Shown here in pieces: positions 1 to 50,874 of a DNA stretch of 64,000 nucleotides. The notes beneath the pieces were generated by a model. The model was not told the DNA's origin, did no database searches, and saw only the letters and a list, made by a program, of their open reading frames with translations. This DNA comes from Balanoglossus misakiensis (Eukaryota; Animalia; Hemichordata). A program made the position numbers and the translations under genes. Location: positions 587,123-651,122 of the forward strand of contig CM082586.2 of NCBI GenBank assembly GCA_040954595.2, in the 5' to 3' direction. Numbering within the stretch: the stretch's first letter is position 1; every line of letters starts with the position of its first letter.

Positions 1-899
1 ATTCTGGCAAATGTTGTTGCTCAGACTTTGGGGGAAATGTTGATGTGTAACTGTCAGCATTTAGAGTAATGTCGCCTCAGGGCATTTATTGACAACTTTT
101 GTAGAAATGCATAGTGTTGAAATTTACTTGTGGAGCCCAGTAGAGACATAATATGAGGGAGGTTTGTTTGTAGAAGTGAGAATGATATCAGAAACAAAAG
201 GTGTTCAGTAAAGTTTTCAAAGTTGTAGCAGAAAAAATAAGCCCATGATAGTTATAGCTCCTCTGTCTTGTATAAGGCCAAACCAAAAGAAAATGATGGG
301 GCTTTTCCAAAATACTAAAATAAATGAGGTGATGTAAGATTATATGCCCTCACTATGGATAGATCAGTATTTACCTGTTTTATAGAAAGCTGAATGTGTA
401 ATTTAAAAATATCAAAAGACATTTGTGTTCATAGGTCCTAAGTGAAATGACATTTTGAATGAGTATGTGGAAGTGCACCCTCTTGTGAAAGAATCCTCAA
501 TAATGTTACTCTAACAGGTGCTAGGCTTTGGTTCAATGTCAGGAGAAATATTCCAATGTTTTGTCAAGTGCTGTATATGAAATTGCCAAGCTATTTAGTA
601 TGGAACTTGTGTTTAAAGGATTACTGCAGTGATGTGTTGACAATAGCTGAGTATATACTCCCAGTTATTCTGTGATCTGGACAGTATCCTATTGTAAATA
701 AAATTCTGTTCAAGCTGAGTGAGAACCACTGAGTTTTTCTGATCATGCGATAGAGTCTGGACAGCGCTGAAACATCTGGTTAACAACATGGAAATAGAAA
801 GTAGTTCTGCACTGCGTTGTTTGCAGTGTAGCTGCTGGGTTATTCCTGGTTCTGGTTGGAACCACAAAAGAAGTGATAGATATTTTAGGATTCAAATGT

Positions 900-1657
900 T
901 CATGACAGCCATGGTTGTGATGATGTCATTGAATGAAACACTTCATCAGCTTTAAGGTTCAACTCCAAACACTTCAAGCAGTTGATCAGAACTTCCCAAG
1001 TTGCACTGCGGTTATTCAACATCCTCCAGGCTGTTAGCATGGCAATGGCTTGTCTCTCACTGTTGCCATAGTGATCTGCACTCACTGCGTCCATTTTGTT
1101 CAATGGAACTCCTAGAACTAAACCGACTTGATAGAAATCCGTTGATATTATTTTAGCAATGAATACCAACTTGTCGTCTGGTATAATATCTGGAATGACA
1201 AATGTGCAAAACATGTTACACACAACAGATAAATCATCTTTAAAGAATGTTGTGTACTTGCATGAATATTTATAAATGTAATCTTGAAAAGAGAATGTAT
1301 ACCTTTCAATATCCCAGCTCTGTGACAAATTTCACTGTCTGTGACATCATGGTCTGTGCATTGTACTGGTCTTTGAGATTCGACGGTTTCGGTCAAGACG
1401 TTAACAAGATGGTTTTGTTTAGATCCAACTTTCAAACTTTTCACCAAAGCTCTGAATGCATCATCACCTCCACAAAGTAGTAACTCCAGCAATCTCTGAT
1501 TTTTGTCTGTCTTGGTTTTATTTCCCGTGTTTTTGATGTCTGACACCATATCCAGTGTGAGAGCGCCCTCCTGAACAAGATATGGGAGCACATAATCTGT
1601 GTTGATCTCCTCCAATAGTTGTACGTAGTTTCTTTCAATTATCTGGCGTTGTGTCAT
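900..1657 (-). CDS. CARD + death domain adaptor protein (CRADD/RAIDD-like architecture), 214 aa, 2 coding exons
   Basis: Exons 1657-1303 and 1189-900, joined by a phase-1 GT-AG intron (aag|gtatac ... attccag|at). Exon 1 is CARD-like (IIERNYVQLLEEINTDYVLPYLVQEGALT...KNQRLLELLLCGGDDAFRALVKSL). Exon 2 is DD-like (LVFIAKIISTDFYQVGLVLGV...QAIAMLTAWR...ATWEVLINCL). A probable 5' UTR exon ends at 1823 with a GTGAGT donor. Confidence 0.85.
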
Positions 1658-2763
1658 AGTGAAACTTTAACGAAAGAGATAATTTACTTTACAGATATGT
1701 TGATATAAATGGCTGATCAAAGGCAAGAACAATATTGCTGACACTTCTCTATACATTTGAAAAGTTGTTTTTCTCGAATGTGTAAAAAAAGTTTAGAAAA
1801 ACAAGGGTTATGCCATACTCACCTGGTAGGCCAATCCGTTTCCTCCAGGCGTCTATTTCCAATTGAGAAAGACCTCGGCAAACTGGTCCGAAATCAGTCA
1901 CGTCTAAGTATGGAAATAAGTGCCTTGAATTGTTCTGTGCGCCTTGTGTAGAACTAAAATACCAAAACTTTATCTTGACGCTGTAGATACCTTCCAAGAC
2001 GGGACTTCCCGACGATTGCCACATAATATTACTGGGTGGAATGGTATATGATATGTTACTTTGTATTGGCCATGTGTAAAAGAGACACGTGCTTTTTTTG
2101 TGGTGCAGCAATACAATCCTACCATGGCATCGCCTATTGTCAATTGACCGAATAGCTAAACAGGAGCTGTAGTATTGTAACCAGGGGTAACAGCACAAGA
2201 TCAAAAACAGAACACAAATCTCATTTTTCGGCTTGTGTATTCTACAAAGAGTTAAATTTAAGTGTTATCGCCAGGGTTGACATTTATTTTAAATCACTTG
2301 AAAACGTCTTTTTGGGTCATGACGTATGTTTGGAATATAAATTGGTCAGGGTTATTTCTGATAGAAATGTGACGTCAGAGACCAGGAGAAAGTATCCCAT
2401 ATCTCAAGAAATTGATATGTTTAGCTTTTTGAAGTGAAGCGCTTCTGAAAGGCAAGCCACTGTATAGGGTCGAAGATATCGGTTAGAAACAATAACACGT
2501 CTCGATTCAGTTTGTGTTGAAAGTAAAGACTATGCACATTTGTGTAGGATAATGTTACGTGGTCCCTTAATGCTATATGAGTACGTCTTGGAGTTTAGTA
2601 TACCGGTTAAAGTGTTATGAAATACCAGTTTCGGTAAAGTGGTGAACTGCCCTGATTTGAAAGATCACTAAATGTTTGTGGACTTGTGTAGGTGTAAATA
2701 AGTGCGAACTGTTCCGTTAAAAGTGCAACTTGCCTCTGTTTGGTGAAGATACCTAAAGATAAA

Positions 2764-3796
2764 ATGTCCCGACCACGAAAGAACCCTCGTCACATAACAG
2801 GAACTGTCACCAGGACAACGCTTGAGGAGAAAATTCTAAGGAAACTGGACAAAATTGACGCAGAGATGAGTGAAATGAAAGAATTTAAGGAGGCCATGAC
2901 TTGTAAGCTTGAACAGTTTGAAGATCATTTGGATAAAATGGCTCGTCAACTGAAGGGACTCGCCAACAAGGTCGAAGAGACAACCAAGTTCGGTGTGAAA
3001 CTGGAAAACTTCGAAAAACAAACCACCAAACGGATCAACGATGACATATCGGACACCAAGGTGAAACTTGGCAACGTGGAAGAATTTATTCAGAAAGAAA
3101 TTTGCAATAAACTGCAAAAACTTGATTTGAAGATTTCGACCACAGACTGGTCATTGAGGGCGGACATTGAGAGAATGGAAGATAGTTTGACCGGAGTACC
3201 GATGTTGAGAAGCTCGTTAGAAAACCTACGGAAGTTTGTTGATAATAAACTGCAGACTGTGAATTCTGAATTGAATAAACTAAGAGCTGATATGAGGGCA
3301 GAACAGAAGAAATCACAACTAAATGAAGTCTCCGGTAGGTTTCATTTTGGGCGTTTTTCAACCATTAGTTCTCGACAGGGTGTTCTTCTTACAAGGCCTC
3401 ATTAAACTTGAACTTTACAAGTGGACATTTTATTTCCCAGGTACAATTATGGTGCGTGGCCAATCAGCTGGCTGGACCAGTAAAATAGGCGGCAGTGCTG
3501 GAAATAACACCATCACCGACCATGCAGTATGTGACCGGGATCTGGCACACATCTGTTCAGTGATTGCATCCGAATATTATCGCGTCGGACTTGAATTGGG
3601 ACTTAGTACAGAGATGCTTTGTCGGTGTTCAGCTAAATCCAGGGATGACAACTACAGAAAGACGATTGAAATGCTGAAAATGTGGAAAATGAAGGAATCG
3701 AAAAACGCTTCTTGGGGAAGATTAAGGACAGCGTTGACAAAACTTGATTTAACGGATATGGTGACTGCATTGAATGATCGATTCCCAAATATCTAA
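2764..3796 (+). CDS. Coiled-coil + C-terminal death domain protein, 308 aa, 2 coding exons
   Basis: Exons 2764-3334 and 3441-3796, joined by a phase-1 intron (tccg|gtaggt ... ttcccag|gt). Exon 1 is a long heptad-rich coiled coil. Exon 2 is DD-like (DLAHICSVIASEYYRVGLELGL...KTIEMLKMWK...ASWGRLRTALTKLDLTD). Confidence 0.85.
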
Positions 3797-6700
3797 AATG
3801 TATCTATAAAATTCAAAAATGTCATCGTGACTTCGAATTTTGTCTCGTGTAATATTATTAAAATAATCTACGGGTATTGAACAGATATTGAAAAATGCCA
3901 CGGTACTTAACCGGAAGTACAAGAGAAACAAACTACCGGAAGAAACAAAAGACGGTAACATCAAGGCGTTGAGGGCGCCTGGCAATCACACAGGTGGTTG
4001 AACCACGCCCAAGGAGACAAAAATATTTCTTTGTCCGTGGTTGAATCTAAAACGAGGACGCCCTATGTCGTACATCCATGCCTATAAGCTAAGGGTAGTA
4101 TGCGCTCTAGTTGGCATAAAAGACTCCTGAAAAAAATTAACAATTGAGACACAGGACCACCAGAAAATGCCAGTAGGGTGGGCCATGTACCCATAGGTGA
4201 GAGATGCCATATGAACTCCAAACCTGGGTAGGCCTACTTTGTTTGGAGGTATATATGCACAACGTGTCGAGCTGATCTGTGGACATGTTTACATCTCTGC
4301 ATTCTGATATGATTATTCAGAATACGTAAGCATGCTACAAAGGATTTTATCAAGTTTATATACCTACACATTGCCTGTGCAAATAGTGTGATCTAACTAA
4401 CTGTGCTATATATACATAATACACACAGTTGCCGGCTGATAGTAAATAAGAGATGTGTCAATTTTGTTTTAAAAAACACCAGTTCTGAAATACTGGTATT
4501 TATACAGTTTGTTCAAAATACATGTACGGATATTTTGGGAATTGATAAAAACAAATACACAATGGGTATTATATAAAAATTAACGCATCATTTCATCACA
4601 CTATGATTTTTAAAGGCATGAAAGCAGGTGGTCGGTCTATTTGTTGTCACCTAAGGGTATTTTTTGAAGTTTTTGCATTAACCTAAGGACGCTTCCACGG
4701 TTCACCTCTCACGCAAGCTATAATTCCTAGGCCCATTGTGTCGATATTACTCCAAACATGGCCGCCTTGTGACCCTAACTAAGAAGCCATTACGGACTGA
4801 CACACCAAACCATTATTAGACTTCTGCAGGTTTTCGTTTCCCCAATGCGACAAGCACCTCTTTAAATAACACTGTCAACCGGTTTGTTGGTTGTAGTTAA
4901 TGTACTCCGTGATCAAGCGATAGTCTGCTTGTCTGGTTGTTATGGACGCTATGTGGGGTTCACACAATGGCTGTCTGTGATTGTAAAAAGTGTTTCACTG
5001 CTCAGATTGTTTGAGGTAAGTGTCAATTACCATTTCCAGTCAAATCTCGCTCTCGTCTGGTTTCATAACAAGTCTTGTCGCATAAGGAGATATTTTCCTA
5101 TTTATTTATGAAAACAGAAAAAGGACTCTTTTGTGCGAAGAGAAGTTGGATTCTTTGCAGACGAACATTGTTTCCTGAATGGAGTACAAATCACCTGCCA
5201 CAAATTTCCGTCCATTTCCATTCATACTCCCGAGTCAAATTAAAGTTAAAATAAATTTTTAAAATCTCCGTATTTTTTTAATTGACAAACTACTTGTAAA
5301 ACACGAGTCCGTTCATGAACAAATTGTATTTGACTAACAACAAGTAAAATATCAACGTAACAATAGATTTGAAGACAGTGGGCCTACTGAGATTTTGTTT
5401 ATATTTCGATGTCTAATCCTGATGGTTGTGGATAATTTGTGGGCTTCCTATCGCCTTCCCCGATAACCCTTCAATTGGTGATTGCATAAAAATCTCGATT
5501 GCGTTCCTTATATTCACTCCATGTACCGAGAGAGACAACCTAGAGGTTTTAAATGCTAAGATACAACGTGTATTTTTGTTGGCGATCACAGAGAACAAAG
5601 AGTTTCCACCGTGGTTTGACTTCCTTTGAATTAACCATAAACAATGGGCTTACAAAGCATTGAGAAGTTCATAAAAAGTTCACCAGATCCCCGCCCGTAA
5701 AATACTCCAGACTGTTTTGTCTTTTTATTCTCTATTTACAAGATATTTTCTGTTTTCTTTTCTTTATGACCTCTTTCTCAATGAGGGTGTTGGTCCCCTT
5801 TTTAACAAAGCGTGAATAATATTGGCCTCGGTCCAAGAATTTCACCAGTATTTGGGTACATTGCATTTTGAGCACCCGAGGTTTGTCTCTGTGACGTCAC
5901 GCATTGTCTGGCGCTGTTCAAGGCTTTAGGCTGTGGGTGAGTCGACAATTCTGTCGAGATTACCTTGTCAAGAAAGAATGAATGAGACTAGTCTTAGCTG
6001 TAAAGTTGTACTATGAAGAGATTGTTGCACTCTGCAGAAATATATTACGTGGCTTAGTTTTCAACAAACCTGTGAAGACGGATTGTGAACAAAGTCTGTA
6101 GACATAGAGTGATGTGGTATGCGAAACGGGCACGCAAAGACACGCACTGGTTATCACTCAGCGTGGCTTTACACAGAACAGAATCAGAGACGCGTGACAA
6201 AGACCAGAGGTTGACGGGACATGCTTAAAGATACAATGTCAAAATAGTCTGTAATATAAGGGCAGCGCGTTGGACTGACTTATTTGGAGTTGACGCGGCA
6301 GGGTTAGCGAAGCAAGAAAGTGACTTTTAAAAGTCAGAAAATGGACCAAAAGTGAAGATATATCTGACACCATAGAGTCTGGAGTTTTTATGAAGCTTCA
6401 TAACTTAGTTCAGTAATGCCAGTATTGTATAGGTTTCAGAGGAATCTGAACAGCGTTGTTTCGTTGCCATTCTTCGAACAAAAGAGCACTGTTATTAAAT
6501 CGAGTGGAGTCATTCACAAGTTATTGAAACACTTGATGAGATTAGCAATTAGACACCTGTCTTTAATGACCTTACGTGGGTCAAGGTCAAGGTCAAGACA
6601 GTCGGGGTCTTTTTGCGACACTCAATAAGGGTCACTTGACACACGTGCATCCCTGGAGTTCATTTGTCGGTCCCACAATGCATTGCGCGCTTCACACTGG

Positions 6701-7647
6701 TTGTCAGTGCAGACGAACATCCCGGACACCCACAATATTTGTAATTTCATCGACCATATCTTATGAATTGCGAGTATTAGGGAACGCGTCGTTGCTGCGG
6801 AACAAGACGTTTTATAACTGCATGTTGTATGTAGACACACAAAACCGTGAGAAGCGACCACTGCAAAACTTGAAAGGTCTGTATTGTTACATGTACTCCT
6901 ATACACGGGCTTGTCGTATAACATGTTCTGTGTTCTTACGTCAGAGTTGCGGACAAACATTATACTCCCGGGTCAAAGTAAATTGTCTGGCGCCTCTACG
7001 TTGCACACCTGTTCCAAGAGTGCATAGCGTAATTGACCAATCACAAGTGCTGTGATTTCAGGTGTGCGGAATTGACCAATCGAAATTGTCGGTGCCTGAA
7101 TTAACCAAATAATGACTATCGATCGATTGCCGCTATGTCGGTACGGTTGAAAAGTGTACACTGCCGACAAAAGTTCATGATTGATTTCCGACAGAATAAC
7201 AGTTTGAGTCTTATAGGATTGTTGGTTGAGGCTTTCTTTAACTTCACAATGATTTTAGTCACGGGTCGAGTACCGGGTAACTGTGTGTTAGGCTATTTTT
7301 AAGGTCTGTCGGACCAGAACTATGAATAGATCGACCTTGTGCTAGCAATGACCTTAATTGTGCTGCATAATACCGACACCACTAAATGGATTGAGTAGTA
7401 GTCCCACAAAAGCCGGTGAAATCAAAATGCACGAGGTCAAGTTTATGTTTAACTATTTTGGGCTAGTGTGCGCTATTAGGGGTCATAGATAATTAGAACT
7501 CGCACATGTAGACGAAATTCGCACAAAGTGTCGTATCCACGGCCCCTTACTCGTCACCCGGTCACTTATTGCGTCATCGGTGTCTTTGTCTTTCAGGATC
7601 ATTTTCTGTCGTTCTCTCAATCCAAAGTCTAAAGAAGATTTTACAAG

Positions 7648-9887
7648 ATGGGTGAAGACAAAGACGGTTCGCACAGCAAGGAAGCCATCGTTCAGAAAAT
7701 CGTCCACGTTCTGCATCGAACACTTCAAGACGTTGAACAAGAGTATGTGTATTTTGCGAGACAACGGAACTATTTCATCAACGCCATCAAACACAGAATC
7801 AACCCAGCAGGCAGTAATGAAGAGCGCCATCAATTCCGCGTCAAGTTAGGAGTGAAAACTCTAGGAGAAGTTCGCAAGCTTCTTTCTGTTGCATGGTCCT
7901 CCGATTCAGAAAACGGCAGCAGTGCCAACACACAGGGAGCCCTAGAGATGTTTCTCGATTTAACATACCAACTGAGTGAACTTCGCGAAAATTTGGATGA
8001 GAATTTACCCGATCATGCCAGACAGCACTGTCAGGCCGATTTGGATGAATGGAAACGCTTACTTTCTGACAACTACGATTTGACATATCTTGATAAGGAG
8101 GAATCCACGCTCGACTTTGAAGATCGTCCCGGTTATTCTGGTCTGGTGAGTTTACTGCCTTGTGTGCTGGACACTGCAAATACAGTGTTTCAGATCTTAG
8201 GCGAACTCTACGGCGCGCGGAAGGACACACCTTACCGCCCTCAGTTGAAATCGAAATCCAAGGATCCGAACGTTCTGGAGGAAGAGATGGACGATGATGT
8301 TTTCGTAACTGCACAATCTGTTTTGACAAAAGACGACCAGAAAAATAAAATTGGGAACGAAAAAGAGCGAAAATTAAAGACTTATTCCTCCATACTTTCG
8401 CCAAGACAAGGCCGCACATTGCTTTCGCGAGAGAACAGAAAAGCGCCGCCAAAGGTAACACGCCGAGTGACCCGTCAAGTGACCCATCTATCTCCAAGAA
8501 TCGTTACTAAGCAACCGACATTCATCAGTCGGGTAAAGGCACCGCTAACCGGGCTTCAAACTCGAAAATCGGGGAAACTTCCTGTTCAAGCGACCTCTCA
8601 ACAAAAGGAAAGACAATCGAAATATATATCTATGCAAGATTTTGTCATTTCTCCGACAAAGCAAGTCATATCGTCACCCAGAGCAACGACTCCATACCAG
8701 AGAGTGAAAAAGGAAGATTTTACAAGATTCCCAACTGTGGAAAAACAGAAATCTCTGAAGGGCATAGAAGATTATACAAATGTCCAAAAATCAGCGTTTA
8801 AATCTCAGCTTCCATATCTACGCAAACTCTACGGCATCGACAATGTTTCGCCGCGGCACGCCAAACTCTCAAGCCCACCAATCGTCTCGCAAAGTTTTCC
8901 ACGTCAAAGAGGCGGGAAGATGACGCATGTTCCTTTACATTCAAGTTTGGATCCAGCCCGACAAGATGCATATCCCAGAATGCAACGCGGACAGCAGCGG
9001 ATATCAACTTCCTCCTTGGACTCACTCGACGCCGTCCCAGTCAGTGTCATTTATCATGGCAGTACTATTTACAATTATCCTGGGGGTGAAGTGACGTCAG
9101 ACATGGACCATACCACAAGAGCAATAAAACGAATAGAAGGTAAGGGTGGGCCTGTTTGTGAGTTTGTCATTTGGTTACAATTAACTTCAGGTTTCTACAT
9201 CAGAAAATGAAGTTCTGTAAATTGTGCATTTTGATGCTTGAGTGTCCATAACATGGTAGACATCTTACTTTTCAGAGAGGTTGCTTCCCCAGATGGATTC
9301 GCTGAAAGCCAAAATGAGGAAAGGAAATTTGAAACAAAGAGAAGATTCCAACATCATCAATACATTAGAAAACAGACTAAGAAAAATGGAAGATGAAATT
9401 GAAGACATCAAGACAAGACAATTGTTACATAATTACTATTTGCGAGGTTAGTAACCGCTGACAAGAGTTACATCAGTCTTGAAAAGTCCATCTTCCAGGA
9501 GCGCCTTTCGCGCTCCCCCATAGCAGGGTCGGGGAGCACCTTCAAACGACGGGGTTTTCCAGTCTACGATTATCTGTAGCAATATTTTTTATGATTTCAG
9601 ATGTTTTGAAGACAGTTACAATCAAAGACTTGGACATCATCAAAGACCATGTTGCCTACAAAGATATCATTGAACTTGGAGTTAAACTTGGACTATCGGA
9701 AGTTGATGTGGAGGATGTGAAAGAGGAAACAAACAAACCCAGAGAACAAGTCCTTCAGATGCTGTTGTCATGGAGAAACAAGCTAGGGAAGTCAGCCACG
9801 TTGGATTTGATTATCGAAGCTCTCATTTCTATCAAACGCAGGGAGACTGCAAATAGTATAATTATGGATATGAAGAATAGGAGCTAA
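7648..9887 (+). CDS. SPACA9-like domain / basic SP-rich linker / coiled coil / death domain protein, 649 aa, 3 coding exons
   Basis: Exons 7648-9139, 9276-9446 and 9601-9887; both introns are phase-1 GT-AG and the frame is open throughout. The last exon is DD-like (DLDIIKDHVAYKDIIELGVKLGLS...EQVLQMLLSWRNKLGKSATLDLIIEALISIKR). The first ~190 aa match remembered SPACA9/C9orf9 motifs. AATAAA at 10799-10804. Confidence 0.85.
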
Positions 9888-11800: not shown

Positions 11801-12026
11801 GTAAGTTACAACTTTTTGTCGTCTTTTTCTTGAAACTTGTTTATTTGTTAATTTGAAATTAATCTAACTACAGACGAAATTAGGTATATATTATTGACTA
11901 TAGGGGAAAATACGTTTTGTAACGATGACTTGCATTCAACGATTCGTTACAATGTTCTGAGGATGTTTTTTTTCCTGAATTTTGTTTGTAACGTGTGGAT
12001 TAGTCTAACGCTTTAGGAATAACTCT

Positions 12027-15000
12027 TCATTTAGAGTTGTATCCGTCATTATGCACTTCGTTTAAGTTGATTTCCTTTATTTTAATTTCCTGAGATTTCT
12101 TCGTGTTTTTTGCATTCCGGAGTGCTAACCACGTGATCAAGTACATTATTAAAGCGATACCCTTCAAAATAAGCACAAACAACATCAATTTCAGGCGATA
12201 ATTGTAGAGATCGTAAACCCAGCAGATGCTGAAAAGACTACACTCTGATGTCTCCCAGTATATACACGATGAGTCAATGAGGTAGCCCATGTATATCGGA
12301 GTGGGTACCCAACCTGCAAGCGAAATAAAACAAAATCCTGAACAACGTTTCGCATAATTCTGGTAACTAAATTCTCACTGTGGCTATCTCCGAATTCCAC
12401 GAAACATACTGTAGTTTCCGTACTCACCGAGAACCTGCGCAAATAACTGTCGAACACCAACTGCAAACGGCTTGTCCGTAGGATCGACAATGCTAGAATA
12501 AAAAAGCCGCCAACCCGTTCTATGATTAATAATATGGTCCGTAATTTATCAAATTCAGAAAACACGAAAACGTATCGCACAGTTAGTATCGTCATATTGA
12601 TAATTTTCTTACCGGAGAGGTAATACAACGTACGCTGCCATCGGTAATCCGGCAACGAAAGTGAAGATGAAACATAGTGTTACAAAAATCGCCAGCAGGG
12701 AATTACATTGCTCTCCACAAATTCCACTTATGGCTCTTCTTTCTGAAAGAGGAGTCTGCAAGTCGTTGTCAGTTGAGGAACCAACGCAAGTACAGGCACT
12801 GAAGTCCTGGAAATAAATGAAGAGAAAACTCAGTGGTCATGCATAATCGCATAATTTTAGTGAACACAGTAATTTCACATTTACAAGTTACTGAAAAGAC
12901 TTCATTTATGATCCAATACCGGGATATAACCATCAACAAATAGTAACGGTAATTAGAACAAGTATAGCTTTGATTAGTGTATCACAAACCGTTGAGGTAA
13001 CTGTTTCTGTACATCCGGCGTAGCAAGGTGAATAGTATGTGACACCATCGCTGCCACAGACAGGGTCGTAGTCAGATTGTGAACACCCACAATTTTGATT
13101 ACACGATGACGTCAGTGGAGACGAATCCAAGCTGGAAAAGTCTTCATTTCTGTATTAAGATTGGTTGGTAGAAAACTTATTATTACAATTATATCCAACC
13201 AATTTGTGAAAGCTAAACGTGTTGCTGCTACTGGTTTTAGTATGTTTTAGTCGGTCTGTCTGTCCCCTCTCCCTATCTTAGAAGAACAACTTGAATACAG
13301 AGAAGCGAACCTTCACCTGAGTATGGTTGCATTGACGGTATCATTCAGAATAATCCTCTCCTTATAAGGAACAGACACTCCAGCAAACGTATCTGTTTCA
13401 CAACCGAGAAAAAGTACCGGGATAGGGAGTATGGCGGTAATTATTCCAAGTATGACCAAAACTTTCGCTATGGCAACCGGCGCCATTTTAAATCGTCGCA
13501 TAATAAAGCCACCAGCGAATATCCCTAGAGATGACGACACTACCAAGGCGATAACTAGAAAATAAAAAATGGTGAAATCAATTGTCACATCACAACTATT
13601 TTGAAATCATCATTATCACAGCTAACAATGTCGTTGATTTATTAATATTATGTAAGCCTATGATTTGCAATATTTTAATTTTCCCGGAAGTTTAACTGTG
13701 ATCACCATCATCGGTTTTGTTTTCTAAAACTGACTATAAGAGACATAAAACGACGTACCTGTCAGTAAAGCCGCTTTTGAAGCAGAGATCCGGAATTGCA
13801 ACTCCATGTATAAGGTGAAATAAGTCATCATACCGGAACTGATGGCGCACTCTAATGCGTAACCAATGGAAACTGATATCAGAGGAACATTGGTGAAGAG
13901 TTTCCAAATTACCACAGGAAATTCTGGAATATAATATGCGAGGAAAATAAGATATAAAATATTTTACAAACGCTAGAATTTTCACTTCTGATAAATTCTT
14001 GTCAATTACTCCTTTACTGATATTTTCGAAAGAGTTGCTTTCGCACAATGACCACTTAGTTCTGTATTTTGACATAAATTGTCCAAATGTAGTTGGAGTG
14101 CACAAAGTAGTCAAACTATGCCTCTTTACCTCTTATTCGGCTCAATGCTTCCCGTCTCATCTTGGTCTCGTCTTCATCTTCATAATCATCTTTCAGCTTG
14201 GGAGGGTCGATGTCACTTTCAGTTTCAGGCGGCAGTGGTAATTTCTTTGGCAGTAATACTAACGGAATGGCAACGGCCAGTGATAGAACGCCCTCCACGA
14301 TAAATCCCAGCCACCAAGCTCCAACCCAACGGGTGTCGTAAGGGTCTATATCAATTGTTGACATATCGACGCGATTGAAATCAACGTACTTCCCGACAAA
14401 TACAGAAGCAAATGGAAATCCAACCACAGGTCCCAGGGTGTACATCCCATAATAGATACCTAAATAGAACGAGGAAGCCACATTACTTGAAAAAATAGTT
14501 TTTTTAGGGCTGTAGTAATACAATAGTTAGTACTTTGACACCAAACCTCTGAGTAAACTTCATGGGGACAAAATACAGTAGTTGTTTTTATGGGGGAAAG
14601 ACGATGGGCTGTCTTCTCTGGATTTTAAAAAGACTCCTCCCATACTTCAATATGGACGAAAATGGGCCGAAATCTTTTGAGGACCATCATTTTGAAAATC
14701 TGTTCCCAATGCGAAACCAAAATCAATGCCACAAGACATTGTTGTATTTTACCTAAATAAAGAGGTGCCTTGCGATTGCCGAAGCCATCGTCAATATATG
14801 TTGGTGATAGAATAATCATTGGCGTGTAGAATATTCCCACCAAAGTGTGCGCCAACAGCATCCATACCGTGGTCATCATACTCTCTTGTTCGTCGTTCGA
14901 TGAGCAGCTTGTGGTGTCTGTGTCCGATTCTCCATTTGTAGTGCTGTCGTGCGCCAGGCACATAGTGGTGTCATTTGTTCCAAGTTCAACAGTGCTGTAG

Positions 15001-15518
15001 TTGTACGGTTCGGACAGAAAATGTACAAAGGATATTGAGATTAGACAAATCGCGCCCAGAATGAGACCGCCACCAATAGAACGCGGACGATGGCTGTCTG
15101 GTCGACCGCAGAGGAACGAGACAATGAGAACGGCAACCAACATTCCAGTGTCGAAAAGCGTTGCATTTAATCCAAGGAGAACACTCTGCAAGGAATATCG
15201 CGTCTGGATGCTTGTCATTGAAGCGATGAAGACACTAAAACTGAACGAGAACAAGAAATTGGAGGCGCACAAAAGGAAGAAGGCGAATTTGATATTGGCG
15301 AATATCTTCAGACATTGTGGTCGCCAGCTGCCGATTCCACACATCATGTCGGGATCCTCATCTTCATCCATTGAATACTTGTAATTCCTTTTGCCATCTT
15401 GCTGTTTCGTGGAAGCGGGTATAATCTTCCCCTTATCGCCGGCCTCTCCTCTTTCATCCAAAGTCGGCCGATAATTCACTGAAGTACCGCTTTCGAATTC
15501 GTTTTCGGCGTTCTGCAT
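12027..15518 (-). CDS. Organic anion transporting polypeptide (SLCO/OATP family), copy A, ~734 aa, 8 coding exons
   Basis: Exons 15518-14753, 14459-14130, 13923-13759, 13554-13317, 13149-12990, 12806-12613, 12492-12428, 12313-12027; phases are consistent. Has the OATP signature DTRWVGAWWLGF and a Kazal-like loop CNQNCGCSQSDYDPVCGSDGVTYYSPCYAGC. Confidence 0.93.
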
Positions 15519-15584
15519 TTTCCTAGAACAATCTGTGGTAGAATATAAATGTAATAGATGTAATTGCATGATATGATTATCTAA

Positions 15585-15734
15585 TCACTCACTCACTCAC
15601 TCACTCACTCACTCACTCACTCACTCACTCACTCACTCACTCACTCACTCACTCACTCACTCACTCACTCACTCACTCACTCACTCACTCACTCACTCAC
15701 TCACTCACTCACTCACTCACTCACTCACTCACTC
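15585..15734. repeat. (TCAC)n microsatellite, ~37 units, in first intron of SLCO copy A
   Basis: Perfect tetranucleotide run seen directly. Confidence 0.98.
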
Positions 15735-16224
15735 TCCCGCTCTCTCGCTCACTCAAAGAATCGCTTGTGACGTAACACAATCCCTGTGGTCGTGACCACT
15801 CCCGATTTTGCTGCTGTGAATTCCTTTGTTCCATTGTCAGCAGGAAAATCAGAGTATTGTTATGGACGCTTATTAAACCACATACCCTGGAGCTCGAGGG
15901 TCTCTGATTTTGTTAGCGAATGTTGAGACAATCGCATCTTCATTTACCAAAAGGAATGTTCAACCTGTCGTTTGATTGAATGGTGCAAGCGGTTTTATGT
16001 CAAGAAACTCAGATATTCTTTTCCAACTATCTATAAAGCTTGTTAAAAGAGAACAGAACATATGAACATCTCTAAAATAAATTTACTTTTTGCTCCACAA
16101 ATGATTCTGTTCCTGTACACTTTTTAAACTTAGCCTAACGTGACCACACTGTTTGTTAAAGTATATTTACTGTAAAAAACAAGAACTGTCAACGGTACAA
16201 TGTTGAACCGATAAAATAACACTA

Positions 16225-16420
16225 AATTAAAACTTTTCAAGAGGGTTTTACCGCCTGACGGTTTCGGTAATACTTTCAACGTGATGCTCACCTGTTGCTC
16301 TATGAACCGCTGTTTAAGACACAAACCTCAGTCTGCTCACACCAAACGGCACACCCACAAACCAACTAATGCCCCGAATATGGTGACACGCGTTCCTGAT
16401 CGCGACTCATTTGTATACCC
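16225..16420 (-). promoter_or_regulatory. Probable non-coding first exon / promoter-proximal block of SLCO copy A
   Basis: The block recurs inverted at ~17690-17875 (copy B) and diverged at ~28455-28610 (copy C). Each copy carries cag|GTGAGC in the sense of its SLCO gene (donors at 16291, 17807, 28468). Confidence 0.65.
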
Positions 16421-18077
16421 CATTAGTCCTACATAACACGTCCTATACACATGTATTGCATGTTCTGATTGGTTAATTCGCTTCTCTAAGGTCCACTTGC
16501 AGCACACTGATTGGAGGGACTCATTACTATGAATTATTCAGTTTGTAGCTTCCTGCTTGGTTAGTCTATCAGTCTAGTTCTCATGTGTGCACGACATTGT
16601 TATGAAATGCATTGGTATATACTGGTAGGGTTTGACCTTATTCTAGAGTTATAAATAATAATAAATATTATTTTTTGTAAAGCGTCTGTAATCGTTACGT
16701 AATGCATTTGAATTTTTGAAGTTTTCAATGCTATCACTTTATCGTGCTCTACTCTCGATGTTTTGACCCGTCATTCACTGACATGCAGGCTTCGGTATGT
16801 GTAGTATACGGTCTAGATCACATTTCGCTATTTTCAGCTTACAAAAGCCGTTGGGTTTGTTGATCGCTAGGAGAAACAAAAGCGATTTTAGTGTCTTGCT
16901 ACAGTAATTGCATACATATTTACGCATTGTTTATTTTTATGCGCTAAAAATAAAGCGGGTAGTATTTTAACACCATACGCAACTATGTTAACGCGAATAT
17001 GTTTAAATCATCGACTTGCTTGATCTTGATGAACTAGACAATACATGTAATTGGAATAGACGCACTAGCTTTTACGGCTGGATAGCACTTCCGTACATTG
17101 TATGTGGTAATTGACGTCACAGCAAATCCTCTCATGAACCTCTTCGCGCCCACTGTCATTGTCTAGGATTTACTATGAGAATAGTGAAGTTCAGCGTTTC
17201 TATTCAACAGCTTGGGTATCTGCCAACAAATTACCAAACGACACTTTCACTGTAAACAAAGAAAACTGTCTGGATTGATAGAGTAGATGAATGCGAATCT
17301 TGATAAATGCATAAATTTGCATTTGGCCGTTCATTCTTTTGTAAAACCGTCCCTCCGGGTCGTGGTGAAAGTCACCTTGAAACCTAGACATCAAAACATC
17401 AAGATCAAAGTGAGAGAAAGAAATGCCAAAGTGAATGTACAGTATGGTGATCGAGAATATGACATTAAAACAAAACGAAAATCAAAGTAATTCCAATATC
17501 AGAGAGTCCGTTAAATTTAACACGTTCTGATGAATGACCCTCTCATTCCAGATAAGGCATTAAAGTTTAGACTTTACGTAACCGTTCGTCATTCCACACG
17601 AGTGCAGGACACAACGGATGTGGGAACAAAAACTACTTTCGTGTTGAGTTAGCCCTGCTTTGAATAACGGTACAATTGGGACATACAATAGACGCGTTCA
17701 GGAACACGTGATCACCATATTCGGGGCATTAGTTGGTTTGTGGGTGTGCCGTTTGGTGTGAGCAGACTGAGGTTTGTGTCTTAAACAGCGGTTCATAGAG
17801 CAACAGGTGAGCATCACGTTGAAAGTATTACCAAAACCGTCAGGCGGTAAAACCCTCTTGAAAAGTTTTAATTTTCTATGATGGCGAACATAATTTCTAT
17901 CTGAATTCAACATTCGCTAACAAAGTCACAGACCCTAGAGCTCCAGGGTCGGTGGTTTAATAAGCGTCCATAACAATACTCTGATTTTCCTGCTGACAAT
18001 GGAACAAAGGAATTCAAAGCAGCAAAATCGGGAGTTGTCACGTCCACAGGGATTGTGTTACGTCACAAGCGATTGTT

Positions 18078-18371
18078 TGAGTGAGTGAGTGAGTGAGTGA
18101 GTGAGTGAGTGAGTGAGTGAGTGAGTGAGTGAGTGAGTGAGTGAGTGAGTGAGTGAGTGAGTGAGTGAGTGAGTGAGTGAGTGAGTGAGTGAGTGAGTGA
18201 GTGAGTGAGTGAGTGAGTGAGTGAGTGAGTGAGTGAGTGAGTGAGTGAGTGAGTGAGTGAGTGAGTGAGTGAGTGAGTGAGTGAGTGAGTGAGTGAGTGA
18301 GTGAGTGAGTGAGTGAGTGAGTGAGTGAGTGAGTGAGTGAGTGAGTGAGTGAGTGAGTGAGTGAGTGAGTG
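18078..18371. repeat. (GAGT)n microsatellite, ~73 units, in first intron of SLCO copy B
   Basis: Perfect tetranucleotide run seen directly. Confidence 0.98.
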
Positions 18372-18459
18372 GGGGAAGCCTCACACACTTTGATTACAGA
18401 TTCACATCATGCAATTACATCTCTTACATTTATATTCTACCCAAAATTGTCCCAGGAAA

Positions 18460-21400
18460 ATGCAGAACGCCGAAAACGAATTCGAAAGCGGGACAGTTAC
18501 CGAAGACGGACTGATTCCATTGTCGGTGAATTACCGGCCGACTATGGATGAAAAGGGAGAGGCCGAGGAGACGGGGAAGTTTCTGCCAGCTACAACAGAA
18601 CGGCAAGATGGCAAAAGGAATTACAAGTATTCAATGGATGAAGATGAGGATCCCGACATGATGTGTGGAATCGGCAGCTGGCGACCGCAATGTCTGCAAA
18701 TATTCGCCAATATCAAATTCGCCTTCTTCCTTTTGTGCGCCTCCAATTTCTTGTTCTCGTTCAGTTTTAGTGTCTTCATCGCTTCAATGACAAGCATCCA
18801 GACGCGATATTCCTTGCAGAGTGTTCTCCTTGGATTAAATGCAACGCTTTTCGACGGTGCAATATTGGTTGCCGTTCTCTTTGTCTCGTTCCTCTGCGGT
18901 CGACCAGACAGCCATCGCCCTCGTTCTATTGGTATCTGCCTCATTCTGGGCGCGCTGAGTTTATGCTCTGTATCCATTTCGCATTTTCTGTCCGAACCGT
19001 ACAACTACAGCACTGTTGAACTTGGAACAAATGACACAACTATGTGCTTAGCGCACGACAGCACTAAAAACGGAGAATCCAGCACCAACGTCACGAGCTG
19101 CTCAGCCAATGACGAACGAGAGAGCATGATGACCACGGTATTCATGTTGCTTGGACACACTCTAGCGGGAATTTTCTACACTCCCTTAGTGATTCTTGCG
19201 CCTACATATATTGACGATGGCATCGGCAAACTCAAGGCACCTCTTTATTTAGGTAAGATATCGCGCAATCGACCATACAATGTCTTGGGCCTTGATATTG
19301 GTTTCACCTTGGGAACATTTTAGTTCAGTCTTTGCTATATGTGTGAAGAGTCTTTTTAAATATGTTCGTCATCTTTTTTCATAAAAGCCGCTTCTTTATT
19401 TTGTCTCCATCGTGATTACACAGAGGTTTGGTGTCAACTATTGTATTACTAAAGCCCTAAAAAGAACTATTTTTTTCAAGTATGGTGGTTTCGTTGTTCT
19501 TTTTAGGTATCTATTATGGGATGTTCACCCTAGGATCTATGGTTGGATTTCCATTTGCTTCTTTATTTGTCGGGATCTACGTTGATTTCAATCGCGTCGA
19601 TATGTCAACAATTGATATAGACCCTTACGACACCCGTTGGGTTGGAGCTTGGTGGCTGGGATTTATCGTGAAGGGCGTTATCTCTGTGGCCTTTGCCATT
19701 CCGATAGTATTACTGCCAAAAAAACTACCACTGCCACCTGAAACTGAAAGTGACATCGACCCTCCCAAGCTGAAAGATGATTATGAAGATGAAGACGAGA
19801 ACAGAATGGGACAAGAAGCATTGAGCAGAATAAGAGGTAGAGAAGCGTATTTTGACTACTTTGTGGCACTGTACACTCCAACTATTACAGTAATGTTTTG
19901 GACAATTTATGTAAGGAGTAAACAGAAGAGAATTCATCAGAAGAGAAAATTCTACATTTTATTTTATTTTCCAGAATTTCCTGTGGTTATTCAGAGACTC
20001 TTCACCAATGTTCCTCTGATATCAGTTTCCATTGGTTATGCCTTAGAGTGCGCCATCAGTTCCGGTCTGATGACCTATTTCACCAAATACATTGAGTTGC
20101 AATTCCGGATCTCTGCTTCAAAAGCGGCTTTACTGACAGGTTCGTCATTTTATGTCTCTTGTAGTCAGATTTTTTAGGGAAAAAAAACCGATGATGGTGA
20201 TCGCAAAATTAAAAAATTGCAAATCGTAGGCTTAGACAATATTAATAAATCAACGACCTCTGTTAATTCAAACATCGTCGACGGTGATAATTATGATTTC
20301 AAAATAGTAGCAAAGTGACAATGGATTATGTGCTTGGTAGAATTAAAATAGTCACATTTCACAATTATTTACTTTTTAGGTATCGCCCTGGTAATGTCAT
20401 CATCTGTAGGGATATTTACTGGTGGGTATATACTGCGACGATTGAAAATGGCGCCGGTTGCCATAGCAAAAGTGTTGGTCATACTTGGAATAATTAACGC
20501 CATACTTCCCATACCGTTACTTTTTCTTGGTTGTGAAACAGACACGTTTGCTGGAGTGTCCGTTCCTTATCAGGAGAAGATTAAGGAGAAGATTATTCTG
20601 AATGTTACCGTCAATGCAACCACACCCAGGGGAAGGTTCGCTTCTCTGTTATGTTCTTCGATTAGAGAGAGGGGGAGAGAGAGAAAGAGAGAGACAGAGA
20701 GAGAGAGAGACAAAAAAACAGCCACAGAGAGGAATAGGGCGAAATAGACAGACAGTAGCTACAAGTTTAGATTTCACAAATTGTTGAAATATAATTGTAA
20801 TAATAAGTTTTCTACAAACCCATCTTAAATACAGATATGGAGACTTTTCCAGCTTGGATTCGTCTCCACTGACGTCATCGTGTAATCAAAACTGTGGGTG
20901 TTCACAATCTGACTACGACCCTGTCTGTGGCAGTGATGGTGTCACATATTATTCGCCTTGTTTGGCCGGATGTACAGAAGCAGCTACCTCAACGGTTTGT
21001 GTTACACGAATCAAGGCTATACTTGTTCCGGTATTGGATCATAAATGAAGTCTTTTCAGTAACTTGTAAATGTGAAATTACTGTGTTTACTAAAATTGTG
21101 CGATTATGCATGACCACTGAGTTTTCTCTTGTTTAATGTATTTTCAGAACTTCAGTTCCTGTAGTTGCGTTGGTCTCTTAACTGACAACGAAGATAACGA
21201 CTTGCAGACTCCTCTGTCGGAAAGAAGAGCTGTAAGTGGAATTTGTGGAGAGCAATGTAATACCCTGCTGGTGATTTTTATTGTGGTCTGTATCATCTTC
21301 ACTTTCGTTGATGGGTTACCAATGGCGACGTACGTTGTGTTACCTCTCCGGTAAGAACATTGTCAATATGACGATACTAACTGTGCGATACGTTTTCGTG

Positions 21401-21870
21401 TTTTCTGAATTTGATAAATTACGGACCATATTATTAAACATAGGACGGGTTGGCTTCTTTATTCTAGCATTGTCGATCCCAAGGACAAGCCGTTTGCAGT
21501 TGGTGTTCGACAGTTTCTTGCGCAGGTTCTCGGTGAGTACGGAAACTACAGTATGTTTCGTGGAATTCGGAGATAGCCACAGTGAGAATTTAGTTACCAG
21601 AATTATGCGAGACGTTGTTCAGGATTTTGTTTTATTTTGTTTGCAGGTTGGGTTCCCACTCCGATATACATGGGCTACCTCATCGACTCATCGTGTATAT
21701 ACTGGGAGACATCAGAGTGTAGTCTTTTCAGCATCTGCTGGGTTTACGATCTCTACAATTATCGCCTGAAATTGCTGTTGTTTGTGCTTATTTTGAAGGG
21801 TGTCGCTTTAATAATGTACTTGATCACGTGGTTAGCACTCCGGAATGCAACAAACACGAAGAAATTGTAG
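18460..21870 (+). CDS. SLCO/OATP family transporter, copy B, ~731 aa, 8 coding exons (exon-4 donor mutated, C-tail truncated)
   Basis: Exons 18460-19252, 19507-19836, 19975-20139, 20380-20635 (cryptic donor assumed), 20835-20994, 21148-21350, 21468-21532, 21647-21870. OATP signature and Kazal loop are intact. Confidence 0.88.
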
Positions 21871-22242
21871 TAAATTAAATTAAATTAAACAAATTCATGA
21901 ATGGACAACTGGGGTCACGTCATATTTTCATGAAAACATAAATTCCTTTGAGTCCATGTGTATGCTTTCTCCTAACCAATATCGTTTTTAATTTATATCA
22001 ATATGAAAATAAGAATGTCCAAAGATACATTTAAATGATTTGTATTAAAATGTAACAAAATCATTGAAAAATAATCACCTGTTATTTATTTTTTTGATTT
22101 GCAGGTTGCTGGCTTTTTATGGAATAAAAATGATTAAAATTAACAATGTCCATTTTCTTTTGCTAAACTCATGTCCACTCCATCTACTCCTCTAATACCC
22201 ACTAAAGCCCAAGTGTCTTACTTCTTGTCTGCGGTTACTAAC

Positions 22243-22413
22243 CTCGCAAATAGCAGTTATGTAACAATTGTCTTGTCTTGATGTCTACAATTTCATCTTC
22301 CATTTTTCATAGTCTGTTTTCTAATGTATTGATGATGTTGGAATCTTCTCTTTGTTTCAAATTTCCGTTCCTCATTTTTGCTTTCAGCGAATCCATCTTG
22401 GGAAGCAACCTCT
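22243..22413 (-). pseudogene. Dead inverted copy of exon 2 of the SPACA9-DD gene
   Basis: 171-nt reverse-complement copy of 9276-9446 with both splice sites retained, and an AGA>TGA in-frame stop at 22309-22307. Exons 1 and 3 are absent. Confidence 0.9.
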
Positions 22414-22489
22414 CTGAAAAGTAAGATGTCTGTCATGTAATGGACACTCAATCATCAAAAGGCACAATTTTATTGTACATGAATCCATG

Positions 22490-23395
22490 TCACCATCAAA
22501 AGCGTTTATTACACAATTCTCGTAAACGTAACACCCGGATGTTAAAACCACCCACTAATAAGGTTATAATGATATTTATTTGAAACTATTAAAATTAATG
22601 TGTTACTGTCATATACCCATTAACCAACGCTGAATACTGTTAACATTTGTACATAACTATTTCGGGAAATAATCTGATCTATCTGAAAATGGATTAAAAT
22701 AAATCAAATGACTTTAAATCATTGAGTTAATTATCTTCCGTGGAAAAAATCAGCATGTTCATGAATACGCTGATTATGCATTTGGAAATTTCGCAGAAAG
22801 ATGAGTATGGCCGATATCAGCACATGAAACTTAACCATCAAAATTAATTACATAATATATAGCGACGTAGAAATCAACGATGTTCAATGCACGGCAATAT
22901 ATTCTCGCTACAATAACCAGTTTTATGCTGCGAGTATATTATCCGGCTTACAACACTTATTGATATGCTAAACTACTTCTCAATCACAACAACCAATCAC
23001 AGGCTTCACAAAATGCACCTGGTGAATGACGCATTTCGATTGGACAGTTGTCGGCCAGCGCAGTTGACAGACGGTCAGTGAGGTGCCACGTTTCCATCAT
23101 TCGAGACTCAATCTTTGACGGGCAAACATCATGGCTGAACGTAGTGAAGAGAACGACCTATTCATTACCAGGAGAAATTTCCGACAACCAAGTGAAAGTG
23201 AAGGTCAAGACTGTGACGATATGGAGTAGATTTCCCAAGATTTTGGTAGCCTCATCGACGATTATGTGCATAAACCATCGGTCACGGAAAGCTACTTGAC
23301 AAAGGGTGTCCTTTCTCCTGGCTTGCAGCCGCCATTGCGCACATCCTCTACTGTAAGTAACAACTTTTTGTCGTTTTTTTTCTTGTAACTTGTAA
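22490..23395. repeat. Direct repeat of ~10970-11840 (region downstream of SLCO A and C)
   Basis: Colinear similarity from caccatcaaa...ttctcgtaaac onward, including a second copy of the pseudo-exon at 23131-23352. Confidence 0.9.
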
Positions 23396-23578
23396 ATAAG
23401 AAACTACAGAGGAAATAAGGTATATGATAAATTCTTCAACAAAATCTCAAATGTTCATTGTCGTATAATGGCTCTGTAGCGATGGCTTACATTCGTTACA
23501 ACTGTTCTTAGCATTTTTTGCTGAATTTTGTTTTTTGATTAGACTAGTGCAATAGATATAACTCTTCACATATAAGAT

Positions 23579-26500: not shown

Positions 26501-27182
26501 ATACCGTGGTCATCATGCTCTCTCGTTCGTCATTGGCTGAACAGCTCGTGACGTTGGTGCTGGATTCTCCGTTTTTAGTGCTGTCGTGCGCTAAGCACAT
26601 AGTTGTGTCATTTGTTCCAAGTTCAACAGTGCTGTAGTTGTACGGTTCGGACAGAAAATGCGAAATGGATACAGAGCATAAACTCAGCGCGCCCAGAATG
26701 AGGCAGATACCAATAGAGCGAGGGCGATGGCTGTCTGGTCGACCGCAGAGGAACGAGACGAAGAGAACGGATACCAATGTTGCACCGTCGAAAAGCGTTG
26801 CATTTAATCCCATGAGAACACTTTGTAGGGAGTATCTCTTCTGGATGCTTGTCATTGTTGTGATGAAGACACTAAAACTGAACGAGAACAAGAAATTGGA
26901 GGCGCACAAAAGGAAGAAGGCGAATTTGATATTGGCGAATATCTGCAGACATTGTGGTCGCCAGCTGCCGATTCCACACATCATGTCGGGATCCTCATCC
27001 TCATCCATTGAATACTTGAAATTCTTTTTGCCATCTTGCCGTTCTGTTGTAGCTGGCAAAAACTTCCCCGTCTCCTCGGCCTCTCCCCTTTCATCCGTAG
27101 TCGGCCGGTAATTCACTGACAATGGAATCAGTCCGTCTTCAGTAACTGTCCCGCTTTCGAATTCGTTTTCGGCGTTCTGCAT
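23579..27182 (-). CDS. SLCO/OATP family transporter, copy C, ~744 aa, 8 coding exons
   Basis: Exons 27182-26390, 26129-25806, 25717-25553, 25304-25067, 24866-24707, 24504-24302, 24184-24120, 23865-23579; all GT-AG with consistent phases. OATP signature and Kazal loop present. Confidence 0.93.
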
Positions 27183-27255
27183 TTTCCTGGGACAATTTTT
27201 GGTAGAATAAATGAAATAGATGTAATTGCATGATATGATTATCTAATCTAATCAA

Positions 27256-27277
27256 TCACTCACTCACTCACTCACTC
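27256..27277. repeat. Short (TCAC)5 at the position paralogous to the long arrays in SLCO A and B
   Basis: Seen directly; same flanking context (gcatgatatgattatctaatc) as copy A. Confidence 0.9.
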
Positions 27278-49791: not shown

Positions 49792-50874
49792 CTCAAACGT
49801 AATGAAGCGGATCCAACGGTGTTTCTTGCTTTGGACAAGTTGTCACACCACAGCATTAACGACAAGCTATGAATCTCAACAACGAACAACTTAAAAAGAT
49901 GTTCACAATTTTAAACGCTCTGATATAACTTCGGAAACGGAGATTGGCTTCGAGTTGGGAGTACAGACAGGTTTTCCAGTGTTGTTTTAAATCATTTCCA
50001 TCGATTGACAACGAACAAAACTCGTTTTGAATGATATCTGAATAAGAGGAACGTCACACTAACATTACTCAAAGTCTCTTTGCTGCTAAAACGCGTTAGA
50101 TTACCCTTAGCAGGGTCTATCGCACTACTACTTCGTTGTTGATCTGAACAAGCTTGTTTGACCAATTGACAAAAATAGTGATATTCGTTTTAGTGCTAAG
50201 TGCAAACACTACCGGTTTACAGGCCAGTTGGAGTCGGATGGACAAAGAGAATGGTGTCACCTTGCCCTCGCATGCAATGCTTCATATAACTTTCAACCAG
50301 TATCCGCTTTCTTCATTGGTGGACAACGTTTATCTCTGCACGTCTACTGACTTGCGTTGCGTCGCAAAAGATCAGGCTTTAGGCCTCACTGGGGATAAGA
50401 GACATTTGGTTCTTGTACATTGTATGTGGTGAAGAGTACTCGGTCCTTGGCTGACTATCTGTACCGTGACATACTTCAGCAAGACGTCACATGACACATG
50501 TATTCATGGTATATGACATGACATGACATGTAGCATTCAAAGGACTGTGCTTTACAATCCATCGTCCCAGACATACATTCATCCAACGAACCAACCGTCC
50601 TGTCATCCTTGCAGTAATTTATTGATATACGCATGCATGCGTGCATGGATACTTTATTATTAACACACCTCATCCCCTGACCGGGGTGACCAGGGTATTT
50701 AAAACGTAATATCATTACATACTATATACTTTGACATTATGTTCCATATACTTATATAATTCTGACGTCGAATAGTTTATGTGTACAGTTCTTGCTTGGA
50801 TTGTTGTTGACCTTTTGGAATATTGTTGCAGGTCATGCCACAAACTGACTCGGTAGGGACATTTAATTAATTAA

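Follow-up and report, generated by a model that had tools for sequence, protein, structure and literature searches.

A predicted SPACA9-like protein with a death domain, and a proposed death-domain adaptor pair beside it, in the acorn worm Balanoglossus misakiensis

Do three neighbouring genes which end in the same domain act in one signalling module, or is only a part of their neighbourhood of functional meaning? This question is raised by a locus in the hemichordate Balanoglossus misakiensis, situated at positions 900 to 9,887 of a stretch of 64,000 nucleotides (assembly GCA_040954595.2, contig CM082586.2, 587,123 to 651,122 of the forward strand), hereafter the window. Short introns mark its DNA, which is that of an animal, and the proteins closest to those of its genes were found in Ptychodera flava (63-71% identity), Glandiceps talaboti and Saccoglossus kowalevskii. 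The locus possesses three spliced genes, here named A, B and C, each of which ends in a death domain (DD) of Pfam grade on its own last exon. The coding introns are all GT-AG introns of phase 1 (four of four, 106-154 nt) and the spliced frames are open up to the stop codon. When the DD profile was run over all six frames of the 64 kb, exactly three DD exons were found, which are those of A, B and C, and all lie within 9 kb. The initial annotation had described three genes, each with a C-terminal DD on an unrelated N-terminus, and both the gene models and Pfam bear this out. The architectures which it gave (CARD-DD, coiled coil-DD and SPACA9-DD) are also supported, the coiled coil being a prediction and the SPACA9 part being upheld by its predicted fold (Z 18.4).

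The reading to which we give an even chance is that C is a microtubule-binding protein of cilia or sperm with a DD docking end, that A and B form a co-regulated adaptor pair, and that the link between A and C is mostly inherited gene order. The three DD genes would then form two functional layers, not one complex. C would be an old acorn-worm protein which attaches to ciliary or sperm microtubules by a SPACA9-fold core and a long basic tail; the strongly conserved hairpin and DD at its C-terminus would dock a DD partner or oligomerise. The role of A would be to connect a DD scaffold with a CARD caspase. B, the head-to-head neighbour of A, would have acquired its DD exon as a copy of one like that of A; through contact of the DDs it would modulate A, and its coiled coil would let it oligomerise. 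Slow change of gene order in hemichordates would be the main reason why A and C have stayed close.

Gene C and the conservation of its parts

Gene C is present on the plus strand with coding exons at 7648-9139, 9276-9446 and 9601-9887 and encodes 649 amino acids with a SPACA9-like N-terminus and a C-terminal DD. The start codon lies at 7648 and the SPACA9-fold domain (residues 10-194), placed by sequence profile, model and fold match, at 7675-8229. The DD (Pfam Death E 4.4e-13, above the cut-off) fills the last exon up to the stop codon. The fusion is intact in all three orthologues found, those of P. flava (643 amino acids), Glandiceps (671) and Saccoglossus (677). These proteins (XP_070533109.1, XP_077990715.1 and XP_006819875.1) are full-length with the same domain order and are named 'uncharacterized' in RefSeq; for the Glandiceps protein, both domains are already given in its precomputed Pfam entry. 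No orthologue of C was seen outside hemichordates among 1,371 candidates or among the best 150 of the 953 representatives which match the DD profile, a search that distant forms could escape. The component families of C are known. No paper describing the SPACA9-DD fusion or this locus was retrieved from a search of literature outside the subscription journals.

SPACA9 (C9orf9; PF15120; PDB 8otz, 7un1) is a microtubule inner protein which occurs in cilia, in the sperm tail and in the manchette. According to its description it is small, stands alone and has a fold that is unique among human proteins (PMC9564825). Pfam SPACA9 (PF15120) was matched by gene C with E 8.8e-4 and 19.5 bits, below the cut-off of 25 bits. 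This cut-off is passed by one of the four C proteins, that of Glandiceps (28.2 bits), while those of P. flava and Saccoglossus reached 17.2 and 17.3 bits. In a sequence search of the PDB, the N-terminus of C matched SPACA9 at E 1e-4 as a single sequence, and the profile of four members improved this to 2.5e-7. Residues 10-194 were modelled from four sequences, and the model had a predicted local distance difference test score (pLDDT) of 78 and a predicted template modelling score (pTM) of 0.77. It superposed on the SPACA9 chain 8otz_0A with Z 18.4 and a root-mean-square deviation (rmsd) of 1.8 Å over 150 aligned residues, while the best unrelated bundle reached Z 10.5. Foldseek gave 22 matches to this model at E<=0.001, the best at 1.3e-6, and the first unrelated row appeared at E 0.12. 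The matches listed were all from ciliary or sperm microtubule structures. The N-terminus of C is predicted from the model to have the SPACA9 fold, and the link of C to cilia or sperm suggested in the initial annotation gains backing from the fold match and Foldseek. In the alignment of the four C proteins, 66 of the 185 columns of the SPACA9 part are invariant. The pLDDT fell below 50 at model residues 43-57 and 75-81, and insertions are present in the cap loops. A full-length model of the P. flava protein, superseded by the domain model, was poor (pLDDT 43) and gave no Foldseek match at E<=0.001, its top ten rows being ciliary microtubule entries. The ESM Atlas contained no usable match for the SPACA9-like domain of C or for protein P0002, and none of 275 pattern matches in metagenome contigs was confirmed.

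C resembles SPACA9 in the predicted four-helix-bundle fold over 150 residues, in the conserved helix motifs and in a disordered tail after the core. It differs in the low identity (~25%), in the change of four of five named tubulin contacts, and in a tail which is ~250 residues longer and is followed by a conserved motif, a helical hairpin and a DD, all absent from SPACA9. C would accordingly be a second conserved SPACA9-fold protein, with a DD, in which the fold is reused in a larger architecture.

The region behind the core is basic and rich in proline and serine (residues 200-452, 8245-9003). It is predicted to be disordered, with a pLDDT below 50 in the P. flava model. This tail of 250-280 residues carries ~50 lysine and arginine against ~20 aspartic and glutamic acid residues in all four orthologues at 33-54% identity. 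No Pfam match was found on it, and its start showed no likeness to any solved chain. It is followed by a 30-residue motif (residues 453-482, 9004-9093), which together with the start of the helical hairpin completes the first exon (9004-9139). The motif shows 70-83% identity in the three orthologues with 19 of 30 columns invariant, which is as high as the DD, and it was present in none of the other DD proteins fetched. Its identity as a RHIM was considered and dropped, no Pfam family matching a 47-residue stretch at E<=10. The second coding exon (9276-9446) encodes a predicted helical hairpin or coiled coil with 68-79% identity in the orthologues, and the P. flava model places helices at 477-511 and 516-546. 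The DD is identical by 87, 76 and 70% to those of P. flava, Glandiceps and Saccoglossus, respectively, with 58 of 94 columns invariant. Compared with Saccoglossus, identity is 50% in the SPACA9 part, 33% in the basic region, 83% in the motif, 71% in the hairpin and 70% in the DD. Judged from sequence identity, the last 200 residues are the most constrained part of C. The DD is not a decaying passenger, because the DD end is kept better than the SPACA9 part.

The adaptor gene A and its head-to-head neighbour B

Gene A is situated on the minus strand and encodes 214 amino acids. Its first coding exon (1657-1303, start codon at 1657) contains the CARD (Pfam E 2.6e-14) and a linker, and its last exon (1189-900) contains the DD (Pfam E 4.4e-6) and the stop codon. 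Both domains were above the cut-off in all three A proteins (214-219 amino acids). The orthologues of P. flava (67% identity) and Saccoglossus (47%), XP_070535170.1 and XP_077867657.1, are full-length, 'uncharacterized' in RefSeq, and keep both domains in the same order with a variable linker; no orthologue was seen in Glandiceps. By region, identity to P. flava and Saccoglossus is 74% and 51% in the CARD, 12% and 27% in the linker, and 76% and 46% in the DD. A is like RAIDD/CRADD in having a CARD followed by a DD, in the same order and at about the same length (~200 amino acids). It is unlike it in that its DD is no nearer to RAIDD than to Fas or FADD and its CARD is nearer to Dronc, Apaf-1 and caspase-9. 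With the family profile, the DD matched Fas at E 6e-5, FADD at 2e-4 and RAIDD at 3e-4, all within a factor of 4 in E. The CARD matched Dronc, Apaf-1 and caspase-9 at E ~2e-3 to 5e-3, with no RAIDD CARD listed at E<=0.1. In the single-sequence search the RAIDD CARD was a weak match (E 0.057) behind caspase-9 (0.027). A sea-cucumber protein named CRADD aligned with A over 173 columns with 94% probability and 26% identity. By its architecture, A can be regarded as an adaptor of RAIDD shape and a candidate RAIDD relative. Matches of the CARD and the DDs to TAL-effector and designed-repeat proteins were rejected as sums of weak repeat matches.

Gene B lies on the plus strand, head-to-head with A, their start codons being 1.1 kb apart, and encodes 308 amino acids. 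The first coding exon (2764-3334) encodes ~190 residues of predicted coiled coil, on which just compositional coiled-coil matches of Pfam below the cut-off were found, with a heptad contrast of up to 0.9. The last exon (3441-3796) encodes a glycine/serine linker, the DD (3515-3793; Pfam Death E 1.4e-11, above the cut-off) and the stop codon. No homologue of the N-terminus was seen among 123 candidates, and no orthologue of B among the best 150 of the 953 DD matches, from which a diverged or unannotated one would escape. The coding parts of B and C are separated by 3.8 kb from stop to start, where no gene was seen and two scanned open reading frames (ORFs) had no Pfam match. A short high-copy repeat is present in this spacer at 7000-7054, with a depth of 865-1758 against ~60-120 around it and many loose ends.

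Three read runs of one sample (X1, X2 and X3) cover the stretch, none recorded as RNA; X3 was labelled 'DNA?' by guess, its contigs carry no strand, and 8 of its 16 pieces were listed. One X3 contig skips the 106-nt GT-AG intron of B (3335-3440) exactly. X3 is read as RNA-like, since this joint was seen in neither X1 nor X2; a retrocopy is the other account of the skipped intron. Contigs of X3 were also present on the DD exon of A (930-1123) and in the spacer between A and B, where the pieces at 2236-2530 were assigned to B by position only. Splice signals predict a non-coding 5' exon of A from 1823 to at least 2084 on the minus strand, and with it a 5' intron at 1665-1822; a contig of X3 covers 1857-2084, and the joint itself was not observed. 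No coverage by X3 was seen on gene C or at 2085-2235, and it provides no evidence on tissue specificity or transcript starts.

The spacer also contains a candidate RFX X-box-like site (2177-2191, plus strand), found by match to an X-box consensus. In the whole window this pattern was matched 6 times, where 0.8 matches were expected, with two of the six inside long ORFs. Expression of A and B in ciliated cells is weakly hinted at by the site. Further matches to the pattern are present at 21329, 31281, 39409 and 60617. Sites of kB-like type were at chance level in the window (3 against 3.7 expected, one of them at 2001-2010), as were, approximately, the matches to p53 half-sites, IRF and MYB near the genes. 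A palindrome, TGACGTCA, is enriched in the window with 10 sites (20 strand hits against 2.3).

The DDs of A, B and C were also compared with one another. Counting self as 0, the DDs of A and B were at rank 6 of 262 from A and at ranks 5-7 of 268 from B, while the DD of C was ordinary, at rank 97 of 262 from A and 225 of 268 from B. The A-B score was reached by 3.5% of 61,776 DD pairs and the A-C score by 28%; against 500 shuffles the z-scores were 18 for A-B, 9.5 for A-C and 3.9 for B-C. Against those of A and B, the DD of C thus scores no better than an average DD does. The nearest DD to that of B, at 38-39%, belongs to the sea-cucumber CARD-DD 'CRADD' (P0099/P0151) and is nearer than that of A. 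The origin of B would be explained most simply by local duplication of a DD exon like that of A, and B is probably the younger gene.

Possible roles of the locus

C likely binds microtubules, as suggested by its modelled fold, by its long basic tail and by analogy with SPACA9. In a preprint, the disordered tail of SPACA9 was necessary and sufficient for binding, and SPACA9 with all five of its contacts mutated still bound in vitro (10.64898/2026.06.14.732105). The action of SPACA9 is reportedly not confined to axonemes, since together with a partner it also works at the seam of microtubules in the manchette (PMC13373224). That a DD can serve in the axoneme is illustrated by LRRD1, a DD-bearing protein that is a structural part of the central apparatus of sperm, in the C1b projection (10.1101/2024.08.06.606614). 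C is like LRRD1 in having a DD inside a putative axonemal protein, and the available text describes no death role for LRRD1. LRRD1 is unlike C in being LRR-based and known from a vertebrate structure, with no similarity outside the DD fold (chain 9ijj_4Y, Z 7.7). Through the fusion in C, a connection of ciliary or sperm microtubules with death-fold assembly becomes open to test.

Several points weigh against the reading of C as a microtubule protein beside an adaptor pair. Five tubulin contacts named for human SPACA9 (Q20, Q21, T61, R64 and N123; PMC9564825) were located in C by way of non-human chains whose numbering starts alike, where the alignment of loops is uncertain. All four C proteins retain Q21 and no other of these residues; T61 is present in one of four, R or C stands in place of Q20 and G in place of R64, and a deletion has removed N123. 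Loss of these contacts need not mean loss of binding, because contact mutants of SPACA9 reportedly bind in vitro and its tail suffices. C is also far bigger than SPACA9, its family measuring 643-677 amino acids in all four species (649 in the window) against 159-224 for solved SPACA9 chains, and a lumenal place for C is doubtful because it is so large. In the same preprint a GFP tag was reported to disturb the action of SPACA9 (10.64898/2026.06.14.732105). With regard to the pair, two DD trees were built from 64 and 32 of 352 domains over 90 columns, chosen by likeness to the DDs of A, B and C and thus biased, and containing no human sequences. Starred branches numbered 8 of 61 in the first tree and 4 of 29 in the second, and the careful search was unfinished; both trees placed B with the sea-cucumber CARD-DD, not with A, at weak support. 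In the approximately unbiased (AU) test the A+B clade had a p-AU of 0.71 and the A+B+C clade 0.29, neither being rejected. Finally, the age of the A-C linkage (>370 million years) together with the X-box-like site would fit a shared ciliary pathway equally well.

The changed contacts bear on another explanation, by which C no longer acts on microtubules. Its SPACA9-fold bundle would have become a simple domain for interaction, and C would be a scaffold of immune or NF-kB signalling in the cytosol, with the 30-residue motif as an amyloid-like assembly motif beside the DD. Change or loss of four of the five named contacts, the insertions in the cap loops with pLDDT below 50, and the position of motif, hairpin and DD as the best-kept part of C all agree with such a role. 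DDs of amphioxus are also reported to be wired into many new immune architectures (PMC2575513). However, the whole SPACA9 fold is kept (rmsd 1.8 Å, 66 of 185 columns invariant), the core contacts of SPACA9 are reportedly dispensable in vitro (10.64898/2026.06.14.732105), neither RHIM nor any other Pfam family was matched by the motif, and kB-like sites do not exceed chance. An immune scaffold is hence considered improbable.

A chance neighbourhood was weighed in the same manner. It would consist of three independent exon-shuffling events without any functional tie, with B as a recent, weakly constrained by-product. The position of all DDs on phase-1 exons, the large number of representatives with a DD (953), the failure of the trees to group the three DDs, and the missing orthologue of B among the 123 candidates and the best 150 DD matches are consistent with it. 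Against it, the 64 kb contain just three DD exons, all within 9 kb, and the DDs of A and B are among each other's closest matches. B is moreover open and spliced in X3, and among the 40 of 140 variants listed, its five coding variants are three silent and two conservative changes. We regard chance alone as an explanation no more probable than the immune scaffold.

The linkage of A and C bears most directly on the module proposed in the initial annotation. In that proposal C, and B also, are alternative DD scaffolds which nucleate A, A recruits a CARD caspase, C anchors the whole on microtubules of cilia or sperm, and selection maintains the linkage. The orthologues of A and C lie on contigs of equal size in Saccoglossus (402,242 bp) and likewise in P. 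flava (40,314,384 bp). From these equal sizes, which give no distance between the genes, A and C appear to share a scaffold in both species, and the link looks older than 370 million years, the age of the split between Saccoglossus and P. flava. The chance of a random gene pair sharing the 402,242-bp contig is ~5e-4, using an assembly size of 758 Mb (PMC4729200). This value, the strong constraint on the DD of C and the X-box-like site between A and B would favour the three-gene module. But random pairs are the wrong background for genes which were already neighbours, and hemichordates are reported to have hundreds of micro-syntenic blocks and to be among the highest in retention (PMC4729200), so that preserved neighbourhoods should be frequent. 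Because micro-synteny is kept at such a high rate, linkage of A and C alone does not show a shared pathway. Linkage in relatives, one of the checks named in the initial annotation, is supported for A and C in Saccoglossus and P. flava. Of B no orthologue was found in the searches given above; a conserved three-gene unit is for this reason not shown. The DD of A is also far less conserved than that of C (46% against 70% to Saccoglossus), which gives no suggestion of one locked interface.

PIDD1 possesses LRR-ZU5-ZU5-UPA domains before its DD, undergoes self-cleavage, and is tied to a microtubule organelle, the centriole. The genes of PIDD1 and RAIDD are not known to be neighbours. The analogy with the PIDDosome drawn in the initial annotation holds for the CARD-DD layout of A and no further. 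B and C are like PIDD1 in having a C-terminal DD on a longer protein but unlike it in showing no sign of self-cleavage and no LRR, ZU5 or UPA domain, none of which was found by Pfam in B, C or the three orthologues of C. Fusions with DDs are, besides, very common. The best 150 DD matches include SEFIR-DD, ubiquitin-DD, Roc-COR-SH3-DD and multi-DD proteins. Among individual architectures a CARD-coiled coil-DD-DD protein of 1134 amino acids, SEFIR-DD, an abalone ubiquitin-like-DD and Roc-COR-SH3-DD-DD were noted (P0086, P0107, P0121 and P0062). In favour of the module, CRADD was reported in molluscs, annelids and brachiopods without PIDD (PMC11463336), so invertebrate CARD-DD adaptors may use other scaffolds. 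Prediction of a 1:1 complex of the DDs of A and C scored 0.00 in two runs with alignments unused and controls not folded, and is uninformative either way. Given that no orthologue of B was found in the searches above, that PIDD1-type domains are missing and that DD fusions are so common, the selected module is unlikely, though slightly less so than the immune scaffold or chance.

The boldest reading is that of a microtubule-anchored death-fold platform. C on axonemal or spermatid microtubules would nucleate A, with B as a co-regulated modulator, and a CARD caspase would be brought to the cilium or sperm tail. We consider this reading as improbable as the immune scaffold. If true, the platform would serve remodelling or damage sensing in the cilium or sperm tail, and would be a PIDD-free analogue of the PIDDosome. 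It would have arisen from a structural protein of cilia, and its two genes would have remained linked for >370 million years. Since CRADD is reported in invertebrates without PIDD (PMC11463336), the locus is of interest for providing two concrete candidates for the nucleator of such CARD-DD adaptors. Should there be no interaction among the proteins, C would be one more lineage-specific DD fusion, mainly of interest to cilia specialists.

Neighbouring genes in the window

The locus is neighboured by genes for OATP transporters, RAD21 and MFS transporters, none of which has a death fold. At the near end, an X3 contig of 1,020 bases lies over 1-565 with a depth exceeding that of the X3 contigs on A or B. 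As a poly-A signal is also present at 697 on the plus strand, a gene that converges on A probably has its 3' end within window positions 1-700. A tandem array of ~4 OATP (SLCO) genes occupies 12000-27300 on the minus strand, one ORF having a Pfam OATP match (E 1e-28) and the others being assigned by likeness. A tetranucleotide microsatellite of ~330 bases (18038-18406) separates two of the OATP copies. A cohesin gene of the RAD21/REC8 family (Pfam E 5e-20) follows at 31400-34400, also on the minus strand. On the same strand, a 430-residue basic low-complexity ORF without Pfam match is present at 60384-61676. A tandem array of MFS transporters lies between these two at 45200-58400, minus strand, with Pfam MFS_1 on one ORF; its members presumably resemble monocarboxylate carriers.

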